Assembly: GCA_041666145.1 (NCBI GenBank)
Contig: JBAYHK010000004.1
Coordinates: 20,542-84,541 of the forward strand
DNA: 64,000 bases
Origin: Patescibacteria group bacterium
GTDB lineage: Bacteria; Patescibacteriota; Patescibacteriia; UBA9934
Direction of reading: 5' to 3'
Shown here piece after piece: positions 49,777 to 52,620 of this stretch (position 1 is the first letter of the stretch; every line of letters begins with the position of its first letter). The notes beneath the pieces were generated by a model. The model did not search any database and had not been told where the DNA came from. It worked only from the letters and a program-made list of their open reading frames with translations. Position numbers and translations under genes: made by a program.

Positions 49777-52620
49777 TTACTCTATCACAAAATTCACAAG
49801 TCTTCCTTTCACGAAAATAACTTTTTTCGGTTCACCGATGACGTACTTTGCAACGTTCTCTTCTGCTCGAGCTTGCACAACAATTTCTTCTTCAGTCGAT
49901 GCTGCATCTACAACAATCAATCCCCGTACTTTTCCATTGACTTGAATGGCAATTTCAATTTCATCATCCTTCAACATTGTTTCATCAACATCTGGCCATG
50001 ACTGTTCTTCTGCAAATCCCGTGTTACCGATTGACTCCCAAAGTTCATTCGCAACATGCGGCGCAAACGGAACAAGAACTCGCAAAAACATTGCAAACGA
50101 TTCTTTCGTTATCGCTCCCTTCTCCTGCACTACATTCACAAACGTCATCAACTGCGCAACGGCCGTATTAAATCCAAAGCTCTCGATGTCTTTCGTCACT
50201 CTTGCGATCATTTTGTGTAAAGACTTCGTAACTGCCACATCTTCAACATCTCCGATCTTTTCCGAAAGTCTTACAACCTTATCCAAAAATCTCCTCACAC
50301 CGATAACACCATTCGTACTCCATGGCACTGGCTCTTCAAACGGGCCCATGAACACTTCATACACTCGAAGTGTATCCGCACCATGCTCATTCACAATATC
50401 ATCTGGATTCACTACATTCCCCTTCGATTTACTCATCTTCGTTCCATCTTCCGCCATAATCAAACCATGGCTGTGGCGACGAGTATACGGTTCAGATGTT
50501 GGAACGTAGCCTTGGTCGAACAAAAATTTGTTCCAGAAGCGCGAGTAGAGCAAGTGCAGAGTGGTGTGTTCCATGCCGCCGTTATACAAATCGACTGGCA
50601 TCCAATACTTCAACGCCTCTTTCGACGCAAACTCATTCTCATTTTTCGGGTCGATATACCGCAAGAAATACCAGCTCGATCCCGCCCAATTCGGCATGGT
50701 ATCTGTCTCCCGTTTTGCCGGTCCGCCGCATTGCGGACATTTCGTGTTCACAAATGAATCAATCTTCGCCAATGGAGACTCTCCGTTTTCTGTTGGCTGA
50801 TAATTTTCGACTGTTGGCAAAAGAACTGGCAGCTCTTCAACCGGAACCGCAATCCACCCATCCTTCTCTGGCGCACAACCATTTTCACAGTGCACCAAAG
50901 GAATCGGCTCCCCCCAATATCGCTGACGAGAAAAGACCCAGTCACGAAGCTTATACTTTGTGACTACTCGTCCGTGAACAAATTCAAGAATGCTCTTTTT
51001 TACCTCTTCTGAACTCTTCCCATCAAAAATATTTGAGTTCATCATTATTCCCTCTCCGACATACGCATGATTGTCAGAATCAATACGCTCACGCCAAAAA
51101 TCTACTTCTGAACACGTCATCGTTGAACGTGAAATGTCTTTCCAATCCTGCCAGATCACTTCATGCTTCTCTTGCTCTTCTGCACTCATTTCATCTCGCT
51201 CGTCATTTGCAAGCTCGAAATAAACCGCCGTTGTATAACCAAGACGATTCTCGTCTTTATGTGCGGCAAAATATTCTGACTGAACAATTCCACCAAGTAC
51301 CTTTTTCAGAACGAGATTCTTATATCCTGTCTCTTCATAAATCTCACGCTTCACCGCTTCAATAATATCTTCACCTTCTTCGGCGCCACCAATAACAAAT
51401 GACGTCCAAGGCTGCTTTTTCCATTTCAAACACAAAATCTTTTTTGTCTTTGGATCAAGAATGATTCCATGAACCATTCGACGTGTAACTGTTTTTTTAT
51501 CTTTACGAGGAGGATTCTTCTCATCGATAGCAAGCGGCATGACGACTTGAACAATCGGCAAATCAAATTTCTTCGCAAAATCAAAATCACGTTCATCGTG
51601 TGCTGGCACGGCCATAACTGCTCCAGTTCCGTAATGCGCCAAAACATAATCCGCAATCCAGACAGGAACTTTTTCATTGTTCGCGGGATTAATAGCAAAT
51701 GCACCAGTGAACACACCGGTCTTCACTTTTGAATCATCACCACGTTCGATGTCGGTCTTCTTCTTTGCCTCAACGATGTACGCATCAACAGCTGTTCGTT
51801 GATCATCGGAGACTATCGATGAAACGAGGGGATGTTCTGGAGCAAGAACAAGATACGTTGCGCCAAAAATGGTATCTGGACGTGTGGTAAACACCGTAAT
51901 CTTTTCCGACGTGCCATCGATGGTGAAGTCGATCTCTGCGCCTTCACTTCGTCCAATCCATTCTTCCTGCTGCTTCTTAATCTTTGGTAAGTAATTGACT
52001 GTATCAAGATCTGCAAGCAAACGATCAGCGTACTTCGTAATCGCGATCATCCATTGTGACTTCATCTTTTTCTCCACTGGCGTTCCACACCGTTCGCACG
52101 CTCCCCCAACCACTTCTTCATTTGCCAACCCGCACAAATCTTTTGGACACCAATTAATTGCAAGCTCTGTTTTGTATGCCAACCCTGCTTTGAAAAGTTC
52201 CAAAAACATCCATTGCGTCCATTTGTAATATGCAGGGTCGGTAGTGTTCACCTCACGACTCCAGTCAAAACTAAATCCCAAAGACTGAAGCTGTTTACGA
52301 AATGTGTCGATATTTTTCTGTGTAAACGTTCCAGGATGATTCCCAGTTTTAATCGCGTAATTTTCCGCAGGCAATCCAAAGGCATCCCAACCCATGGGAA
52401 ACAGAACATTTTTTCCTTCCATTCGCTTTTTGCGCGCAACAATGTCGAGCGCGGTGTAACTTCGTGGATGACCAACGTGAAGGCCGGCACCAGACGGATA
52501 CGGGAATTCAACAAGAACGTAATATTTCTCCTTTTTCGAACCGTTCTTCGCTTCAAAAACTCCAGAATCTTTCCAACGCTTTTGCCACTTTTCGTCAATA
52601 TTTTTATGGTCGTAAGACAT
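49777..52620 (-). CDS. leuS: Leucyl-tRNA synthetase with an inserted NUDIX-hydrolase domain (~130 aa) between the CP1 editing domain and the leucyl-specific domain
   Basis: Start chosen at MSYDHKNIDEKWQKRW (track ORF begins 52668). HVGH, TTRPDT, KMSKS present. Canonical Nudix box GGAEEGEDIIEAVKREIYEETGY (Gx5Ex7REUxEExGU) at about 51322..51390. Confidence 0.9.
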   Translation of the reverse strand: MSYDHKNIDEKWQKRWKDSGVFEAKNGSKKEKYYVLVEFPYPSGAGLHVGHPRSYTALDIVARKKRMEGKNVLFPMGWDAFGLPAENYAIKTGNHPGTFTQKNIDTFRKQLQSLGFSFDWSREVNTTDPAYYKWTQWMFLELFKAGLAYKTELAINWCPKDLCGLANEEVVGGACERCGTPVEKKMKSQWMIAITKYADRLLADLDTVNYLPKIKKQQEEWIGRSEGAEIDFTIDGTSEKITVFTTRPDTIFGATYLVLAPEHPLVSSIVSDDQRTAVDAYIVEAKKKTDIERGDDSKVKTGVFTGAFAINPANNEKVPVWIADYVLAHYGTGAVMAVPAHDERDFDFAKKFDLPIVQVVMPLAIDEKNPPRKDKKTVTRRMVHGIILDPKTKKILCLKWKKQPWTSFVIGGAEEGEDIIEAVKREIYEETGYKNLVLKKVLGGIVQSEYFAAHKDENRLGYTTAVYFELANDERDEMSAEEQEKHEVIWQDWKDISRSTMTCSEVDFWRERIDSDNHAYVGEGIMMNSNIFDGKSSEEVKKSILEFVHGRVVTKYKLRDWVFSRQRYWGEPIPLVHCENGCAPEKDGWIAVPVEELPVLLPTVENYQPTENGESPLAKIDSFVNTKCPQCGGPAKRETDTMPNWAGSSWYFLRYIDPKNENEFASKEALKYWMPVDLYNGGMEHTTLHLLYSRFWNKFLFDQGYVPTSEPYTRRHSHGLIMAEDGTKMSKSKGNVVNPDDIVNEHGADTLRVYEVFMGPFEEPVPWSTNGVIGVRRFLDKVVRLSEKIGDVEDVAVTKSLHKMIARVTKDIESFGFNTAVAQLMTFVNVVQEKGAITKESFAMFLRVLVPFAPHVANELWESIGNTGFAEEQSWPDVDETMLKDDEIEIAIQVNGKVRGLIVVDAASTEEEIVVQARAEENVAKYVIGEPKKVIFVKGRLVNFVIE

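Follow-up and report, generated by a model that had tools for sequence, protein, structure and literature searches.

A predicted Nudix hydrolase domain inserted into the editing domain of a patescibacterial leucyl-tRNA synthetase

Bacterial aminoacyl-tRNA synthetases (aaRSs) are usually viewed as architecturally conservative, with catalytic add-on domains being mainly a eukaryotic theme. In a 64,000-nucleotide stretch of DNA from a Patescibacteria group bacterium (GenBank assembly GCA_041666145.1, contig JBAYHK010000004.1), which at its full length is referred to as the window, we have characterized the gene leuS, encoding a leucyl-tRNA synthetase (LeuRS) with a predicted Nudix hydrolase domain in its CP1 editing domain. 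The closest counterpart of the host protein is the canonical bacterial LeuRS (family model TIGR00396; structures 1H3N and 2BTE from Thermus thermophilus and 4AQ7 and 4ARC from Escherichia coli), with which it shares domain order and signatures at 38% identity to the Thermus enzyme, but from which it differs by carrying a 157-residue Nudix domain in place of the Thermus loop 363-374 and by lacking the leucine-specific domain. A precedent for a catalytic add-on in a bacterial class I synthetase is, according to its family description, NCBIfam NF040702 (isoleucine--tRNA ligase with an N-acetyltransferase domain), which concerns a different synthetase and a different fold (GNAT), and which the window protein matches in the shared core only (66 bits against a cut-off of 1999).

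With respect to the insert, the closest free-standing Nudix enzymes acting on polyphosphate-bridged nucleotides are E. coli RppH, DDP1/DIPP1 and AvrM14, together with the uncharacterised protein 2AZW, and the closest hydrolases of diadenosine tetra- and hexaphosphate (Ap4A/Ap6A) are lupin 1JKN, T. thermophilus Ndx1, A. aeolicus aq_158 and NUDT2. The chemistry that we propose below is already known from pairs acting in trans, in which LysRS or another aaRS is combined with an Ap4A hydrolase such as NUDT2, RppH, ApaH or YqeK (PMC13627108, PMC9283932); whereas producer and hydrolase are separate proteins in these pairs, in the LeuRS-Nudix protein they would reside on one polypeptide. Full-text searches of open-access papers retrieved no account of a Nudix domain within LeuRS or another aaRS, and tRNA goes unmentioned in a 2017 survey of the Nudix clan. 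The remark of a preliminary description of the locus, made from the DNA alone, that a LeuRS-Nudix fusion is not known to have been described agrees with the open-access literature searched, but the architecture turns out to be widespread instead of singular.

Position and fold of the Nudix insert

LeuRS is encoded by a single unbroken open reading frame (ORF; 49777..52668, minus strand), whose longest form reaches a TTG at 52668. The start of the homologues follows the consensus xxYDH (52 homologues, the sample used throughout for conservation of the synthetase core). Features of the gene, all on the minus strand, are as follows.

49777..52620: leuS coding sequence, 947 amino acids (aa) from the probable start ATG at 52620; stop codon at 49777..49779
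52468..52479: HIGH signature of the class I catalytic site (HVGH, residues 48-51), with H48, G50 and H51 invariant in the 52 homologues
51541..51963: CP1 editing domain before the insert (residues 220-360; PF13603), with the T-rich TTRPDT and GTG...AVPAHDERD
51070..51540: inserted segment (residues 361-517), comprising a whole Nudix domain and two short connectors, in place of the Thermus loop 363-374
51133..51483: Pfam NUDIX match PF00293 (residues 380-496; E=3.2e-11, 43.8 bits, cut-off 21.1)
51322..51390: Nudix box GGAEEGEDIIEAVKREIYEETGY, the metal-binding helix, from a pattern match (G411-x5-E417-x7-R425-E426-I-x-E429-E430-x-G432-Y433)
51118..51273: subfamily residues behind the box, from homologue counts (450-501 region), namely the aromatic X-loop pair Y450/F451 (+17/+18), K455-x2-N458-R459, E482 and W490
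50953..51069: CP1 after the insert (residues 518-556), with G-x-L-x-NS-x-FDG and the helix behind it, running into KLRDW; aligned to Thermus 375-417
50425..50439: KMSKS signature of the class I catalytic site (residues 728-732), with K728, M729, K731 and S732 invariant in the 52 homologues

The location of the insert is defined by an alignment to T. thermophilus LeuRS (1H3N), where residues 3-360 of the window protein correspond to Thermus 4-362 and residues 518-737 to Thermus 375-593, so that 157 residues stand in place of a 12-residue loop. The net gain of about 145 residues is close to the approximately 150 initially estimated. The preliminary description had put the insertion behind the end of CP1. 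We find it instead within this domain: the editing model PF13603 (225 bits) covers residues 220-369 with its positions 2-149 and is broken at 149/150 (185 positions in total), and the sequence behind the insert still corresponds to the final part of the Thermus editing domain. The motifs quoted at the outset are all found where described, with AVPAHDERDFDFAKKF at 51565..51612, NSNIFDG at 51019..51039 and KLRDW at 50938..50952, and the PF00293 match falls within the interval 51100..51490 originally assigned to the domain.

An intact Nudix domain, as claimed in the preliminary description, is borne out on several levels. The PF00293 match exceeds its cut-off and improves to E=7.7e-12 (45.8 bits) if the insert is scanned alone. 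Every fixed position of the Nudix box (G-x5-E-x7-R-E-U-x-E-E-x-G-U) fits, with a tyrosine (Y433) serving as the final U. Since this strict pattern occurs only twice in the six frames of the window, each time in a long ORF, a chance match can be excluded. A structure prediction of the kind initially proposed as a check, calculated for the insert alone from a 39-sequence alignment, displays the alpha/beta/alpha sandwich and the strand and helix order of a Nudix domain with a mean predicted local distance difference test (pLDDT) of 95.1 and a predicted TM-score (pTM) of 0.88. In the model of the full-length protein, the insert and both connectors score between 84 and 94 in pLDDT. Because the connectors are predicted with high confidence, the model suggests a Nudix domain that is fixed and docked on LeuRS, with no floppy tether. 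By these measures, a predicted self-contained Nudix-fold domain with all catalytic residues has replaced a surface loop of CP1.

The remainder of the protein carries the hallmarks of a functional synthetase. TIGR00396 matches with 1005.9 bits (cut-off 548.4) in two stretches parted by the insert, and Pfam also detects the class I catalytic core and the anticodon-binding domain (PF08264, 67.5 bits). In CP1, T245, T246, R247, D249, T250, H341, D342, R344 and D345 ahead of the insert and G524 behind it are invariant in the homologues, and TTRPDT and AVPAHDERD align to FTTRPDT and AVPAHDQRD of Thermus. The ZN1 cysteines are present as in canonical bacterial LeuRS. The full-length AlphaFold2 model (pLDDT 88.1, pTM 0.77) superimposes in Foldseek on the LeuRS-tRNA complexes 2BTE, 4AQ7 and 5OMW with target-normalised TM-scores of 0.80-0.83, reaching up to 0.83 with the E. 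coli complexes. In the 1H3N alignment no leucine-specific domain was found before KMSKS: Thermus residues ~594-622 have no counterpart, and residues 714-737 (50425..50500, minus strand) lead straight to KMSKS where the Thermus and E. coli enzymes carry this domain. The leucine-specific domain is present in E. coli and Thermus LeuRS without being universal, and its absence is a lineage feature and no bar to membership in the LeuRS family. The possibility that the inserted segment is the ordinary leucine-specific insertion, envisaged in the preliminary description, is rejected, as this domain lies elsewhere and is absent here, and as the segment has a Nudix fold. As judged from its sequence, the window protein is a complete canonical bacterial-type LeuRS with intact synthetic site, editing site, anticodon-binding and C-terminal domains, and nothing suggests that leucylation or editing was lost. 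A public protein identical over 675 aa (P0002), labelled Patescibacteria group bacterium, is recorded as 'leucine--tRNA ligase, partial', while the frame is intact at 947 aa in the window.

Distribution, conservation and exchange of the insert

The same architecture recurs in many relatives. In a full-length protein search, 74 of the 120 best LeuRS matches have 151-165 inserted residues at this very site, with 5-48 residues found there in the other 46. The search of further genomes of the Candidate Phyla Radiation (CPR) initially called for, which we carried out with a tight 12-sequence alignment and one genome per species, revealed a relative in at least 190 genomes. Record titles among the matches listed name Saccharibacteria, Paceibacterota/Parcubacteria, Berkelbacteria, Moraniibacteriota, Taylorbacteria, Adlerbacteria and Peribacteria, and a few bins have archaeal or other labels and were perhaps mis-binned. 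The Nudix box lies in an open frame with LeuRS motifs in 71 of 80 retrieved loci. An exhaustive search of 1.84 billion cluster representatives with a hidden Markov model returned 153 matches at E<=1e-30 and 963 at E<=1e-10; the best 148 representatives comprise 107 LeuRS (whole or fragments), 32 free-standing proteins (<=260 aa) and 9 others. A unique or rare fusion is thus rejected: the single fragment retrieved by an insert-only word-index search reflects the sensitivity limit of that search, and the other searches show a large family. Precomputed Pfam annotations of public proteins already contain the architecture under the names 'leucine--tRNA ligase' or 'class I tRNA ligase family protein', and the window gene is an ordinary member of this large, apparently undescribed family.

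Among the 74 insert-bearing LeuRS, the mean identity is 65% in the core and only 42% in the insert, yet G411, G412, E417, R425, E426, E429, E430 and G432 occur in every one of the 74. Beyond the box, R380, F408, K455 (74/74), N458 (71/74), E482 (73/74) and W490 (74/74) are invariant or nearly so, and R459 is kept in 66. Six genome loci missed the strict box pattern. The RE-x2-EE core is retained in five of them, which show length changes of one or two residues or in-frame UGA codons resembling an alternative genetic code; the sixth (L010) is the only one with a substitution in this core. Because the box is invariant in spite of the low mean identity of the insert, its conservation is what would be expected of an active enzyme under purifying selection and not of a scaffold. 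In one locus on a contig labelled Candidatus Peribacteria (L077, 4001..4426), three TGA codons lie in frame within the Nudix insert of LeuRS, at least one of them where glycine is expected (L-*-K against L-G-G), which suggests either a genome reading UGA as glycine (code 25-like) or a pseudogene.

Besides LeuRS, the subfamily is found as independent genes and in other hosts. Free-standing orthologues in Parcubacteria-type genomes are 30-47% identical to the insert of the window protein over its full length and share all its motifs; they include genes at L036 3989..4483 and L042 2951..3433 encoding 160-164 aa, and P0137, P0155, P0160 and others among genes of 160-200 aa. Because such free-standing proteins of about 160-200 aa exist, the insert would be an autonomous enzyme that was grafted onto LeuRS. 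The same subfamily is inserted in prolyl-tRNA synthetases (ProRS; P0237 and P0270-P0273), where it differs from the LeuRS case by its class II host, by its insertion site between the anticodon-binding and C-terminal domains and by the small number of clusters found (five). The host ProRS is archaeal-type, with its nearest insert-less relatives being labelled Nanoarchaeota or Woesearchaeota; the box is degenerate in P0237 and intact in P0273. With its motifs common to LeuRS-embedded, free-standing and ProRS-embedded copies, the subfamily appears from its sequences to be a distinct Nudix group of Patescibacteria and a few DPANN-like archaea. It also occurs in a 1318-aa fusion of the order GNAT - Nudix - GNAT - M17 leucyl-aminopeptidase (P0267) and as tandem domains lacking a synthetase part (P0129, 379 aa; P0168, 467 aa).

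The LeuRS family hosts further insertions. Some members contain two or three Nudix copies, the extra one being located at the N-terminal edge of CP1. This edge constitutes a second hot spot (P0043, P0051, P0071, P0083, P0093, P0106, P0127, P0257) that is occupied, depending on the lineage, by a second Nudix domain, an ASCH domain, a serine/alpha-beta hydrolase, a DUF559/restriction endonuclease-like domain or a Ham1 (ITPase-like) domain. At a third, downstream of the Nudix insert (residues ~590-810), an alpha/beta-hydrolase (P0037) and a HAD phosphatase-like domain (P0098) are found. Many insert-less LeuRS of 747-802 aa (P0010, P0016, P0045, P0047, P0070 and others) also lack G-x-L-x-NS-x-FDG and part of the next CP1 helix and read AVPQHDERDR in place of AVPAHDERDF; other insert-less LeuRS of 814-866 aa retain the canonical loop of about 30 residues.

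The history of the insert departs from that of its host. In a neighbour-joining tree of 120 LeuRS relatives (738 core columns), insert-less proteins are nested among insert-bearing ones, and parsimony requires 9-13 presence/absence changes in each of 40 bootstrap replicates, so that the insert has undergone nine or more losses or gains within this set of close relatives. As it adds to the bit score, distant insert-bearing LeuRS are favoured in this sample, and owing to this bias neither the root state nor the ancestral presence of the insert in the midpoint-rooted tree was relied on. The nearest relatives of the window protein by core (P0006, P0003, P0008 and P0007; 81-83% core identity) have inserts that are just 25-43% identical, whereas by insert, P0005 (71%; core 69%) and a group with a distant core (~60% in both core and insert) come nearest. 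In a 30-residue sliding window, the switch between core and insert is sharp and located at residues ~350 and ~545. The GC content at third codon positions (GC3) of the insert (0.338) lies below that of all same-sized windows in the rest of leuS (0.382-0.554). Simple vertical inheritance of the insert is ruled out by the incongruence between core and insert. This incongruence, the repeated changes in presence and the outlying GC3 together mark the insert as an accessory module and indicate a cassette-like exchange between LeuRS lineages at a fixed loop, for which the near-invariant flanking motifs (AVPAHDERD and KLRDWVFSRQRYWGEPIP) may have served as recombination anchors.

Possible substrates and role of the domain

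To narrow down the substrate class, we compared the insert to sequence markers and relatives of known activity. According to the rule of Dunn et al. as summarised in PMC5389931, an X-loop tyrosine about 17 residues after the box marks ApnA hydrolases, a proline about 16 residues downstream marks ADP-ribose, and an SQPWPFPxS array NADH as substrate. The window protein contains a tyrosine (Y450) at +17, and 55 of 72 members have one within +16..+18, the rule itself being a correlate and no proof. A specificity for ADP-ribose or NADH was dropped, since the respective markers (Pro at +15..+17; NADH motif) are absent in 72 of 72 members. The domain is acidic (mean isoelectric point 5.5, net charge about -6.5), and this acidity speaks more for a small molecule than for RNA as substrate and disfavours a generic tRNA-binding appendage. 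In comparisons of a family profile with PDB sequences, the flax-rust effector AvrM14 ranks first across the whole domain, and several dedicated Ap4A/Ap6A hydrolases are also found among the matches. Both pp/pppRNA and Np4N caps are substrates of RppH, which also binds Ap4A (PMC9283932), DIPP1 hydrolyses ApnA, mRNA caps and inositol pyrophosphates (PP-InsP), and AvrM14 is described as an mRNA-decapping effector (bioRxiv 10.1101/2023.11.14.566975). As far as can be deduced from these similarities, the nearest characterised relatives would all cut polyphosphate-bridged nucleotides. With cellular Ap4A/Ap4N arising mainly from aaRSs, and with Nudix enzymes being among the hydrolases that clear them (PMC13627108), we tentatively interpret the insert as a cis-tethered hydrolase of ApnN or related nucleotide polyphosphates, an assignment that we regard as quite possible while short of probable. 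A link to the adenylate and NTP chemistry common to synthetases is proposed because of the prevalence of LeuRS among the hosts and the independent capture of the domain by ProRS.

In the proposed mechanism, the glutamates of the Nudix box would, together with Mg2+ or Mn2+, hydrolyse the pyrophosphate bond of a small polyphosphate-bridged nucleotide. Its likeliest substrates would be the dinucleoside polyphosphates Ap4A, Ap4N and Ap3A, which arise when the aminoacyl-adenylate of the synthetase reacts with an NTP. Rigid docking would put the hydrolase at the source of the by-product and couple its dosage to the translation machinery, with leucylation and post-transfer editing running as in an ordinary LeuRS. 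Of the functions initially suggested for the domain, the clean-up of Ap4A is plausible, but the hydrolysis of adenylates is unlikely.

Several observations weigh against an ApnN hydrolase. The X-loop tyrosine is replaced by phenylalanine in about a quarter of the members. The best structural neighbour of the insert, 2AZW from E. faecalis, is an uncharacterised protein. All curated models of Nudix subfamilies stay below their cut-offs, with NudB being the best at 24.4 bits against 103 and the RppH equivalog models scoring 15-21 bits against cut-offs of 116-259; NudI attains 16.9 bits against 95, there is no MutT match for the insert, and the NudG and YtkD models likewise fall short, placing the insert by its sequence outside every curated subfamily compared (RppH, MutT, NudB, NudI, YtkD). 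The module was lost many times and is thus dispensable, and it is fused to unrelated proteins such as the GNAT-M17 peptidase. The Ham1/ITPase, HAD and alpha/beta-hydrolase inserts in the same LeuRS family fit a hitch-hiking enzyme as well as a functional coupling. Finally, in line with what Goerlich et al. reportedly found in 1982, LeuRS is not known to be a strong producer of Ap4A.

Such a hitch-hiking house-cleaning enzyme would be an active sanitiser of the nucleotide pool, directed for example at non-canonical or oxidised (d)NTPs, without mechanistic link to leucylation, and in very small genomes an essential gene with constitutive expression would offer, in its surface loops, landing pads that secure the expression of such an enzyme. 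Ham1 and HAD are classic house-cleaning folds, and their presence at the two further hot spots, together with alpha/beta-hydrolase, ASCH and DUF559 domains, is in line with this view, as are the free-standing orthologues, the nine or more losses or gains with exchange between lineages and the fusion to the GNAT-M17 aminopeptidase. It is opposed by the bias towards LeuRS (107 of the best 148 representatives) combined with the independent ProRS fusion, by the separate MutT-like Nudix protein already encoded in the window (57559..58038), by the lack of a match to the MutT, NudG and NudI models and by the confidently predicted connectors, which suggest fixed docking. We thus consider this scenario unlikely on balance, if still worth taking seriously.

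A distinctly less likely alternative is an enzyme directed at RNA ends, either in cis at those of the bound tRNA or at those of other RNAs; as an RppH/AvrM14-like pyrophosphohydrolase or decapping enzyme, it would take off a 5'-triphosphate, Np4N/NAD-type caps or an acceptor-end pyrophosphate, via the access of CP1 to the acceptor stem. CP1 is the domain that handles the tRNA 3' end in LeuRS, and the location of the insert in this domain, its similarity to RppH, the top rank of the mRNA-decapping effector AvrM14 and the RNA-associated ASCH domain at the neighbouring hot spot of some LeuRS all speak for such an activity. Conversely, the acidic character of the domain is unlike typical RNA-binding modules, the RppH family models remain far below their cut-offs, the geometry is different in ProRS, and some genomes encode a free-standing form.

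We deem it improbable, at a lower level still, that the Nudix domain provides a second quality control within the editing domain, acting in cis either by destroying Ap4N during its synthesis (channelling) or by acceptor-end repair or decapping of the bound tRNA. In the acceptor-end variant, the domain could remove a pyrophosphate that toxin-type pyrophosphokinases attach to the CCA end, or else take off a 5' polyphosphate or an Np4N cap.

Nudix folds can also be non-catalytic, as exemplified by NrtR-type regulators and mitoribosomal Nudix-fold proteins, and the insert might correspondingly be a ligand sensor or a structural or interaction domain that modulates the activity or localisation of LeuRS. 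The box is degenerate in a single copy each of ProRS (P0237) and LeuRS (L010), but the eight invariant box residues in the 74 divergent LeuRS copies, with E482 also kept, render this very unlikely. An artefact in the form of an assembly chimera, a mis-joined contig or an ordinary idiosyncratic LeuRS insertion has a negligible probability. The sequences do stem from metagenome-assembled genomes, and the identical NCBI protein is listed as 'partial' only, but the unbroken frame, the recurrence of the architecture at the same position in 74 independent protein clusters and 71 of 80 genome loci from many studies, and the absence of the leucine-specific insertion refute it.

Gene neighbourhood and implications

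Other genes in the vicinity of leuS are as follows.

47025..49415, minus strand: ComEC/Rec2-type competence protein downstream of leuS, with Competence and metallo-beta-lactamase domains
49419..49730, minus strand: 103-aa ORF downstream of leuS, no family match
53025..54341, minus strand: 438-aa ORF upstream of leuS, with a C-terminal helix-hairpin-helix resembling the RNA polymerase alpha C-terminal domain (PF03118, 26.5 bits) as its sole recognisable part
54397..55614, minus strand: Glu/Leu/Phe/Val-type dehydrogenase upstream of leuS
56638..57375, plus strand: 245-aa ORF directly upstream of the free-standing Nudix gene, with a remnant like a degenerate Nudix box (FPRGYKPSGVSFAQHAATELAEELG)
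57559..58038, plus strand: free-standing Nudix protein of 159 aa, 5 kb from leuS (PF00293, 56.6 bits)
58025..59299, plus strand: MgsA/RarA-type AAA+ ATPase beyond the free-standing Nudix gene

The free-standing Nudix protein is weakly MutT-like (NF008044, 46.6 bits; cut-off 148) and represents another subfamily, as it shares only 18.6% identity with the insert of LeuRS. The 245-aa ORF in front of it has no match in Pfam or NCBIfam. The locus of the 438-aa ORF is locally GC-rich (0.52-0.59 compared to 0.476 for the window).

Our analysis describes a predicted intact Nudix enzyme inside the proofreading domain of an essential synthetase, which is found in at least 190 species-level genomes and recurs in the unrelated ProRS. 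If it degrades by-products of the Ap4A type, the protein would be a natural fusion of producer and hydrolase, in which dinucleoside polyphosphates would be treated as damage metabolites and removed at source in minimal genomes, and it would offer a simple in vitro system to probe such removal. If RNA or tRNA ends are the substrate, the domain would represent a new synthetase-linked repair activity. Should it act as quality control in cis, Patescibacteria, and DPANN in their ProRS, would have evolved synthetases with built-in repair of nucleotides or tRNA ends, gained and swapped as a cassette. In either case, a large unannotated Nudix subfamily is hidden under the label 'leucine--tRNA ligase', and the surface loops of CP1 tolerate the insertion of whole enzymes, which is of use for protein engineering and for the annotation of CPR and DPANN genomes.

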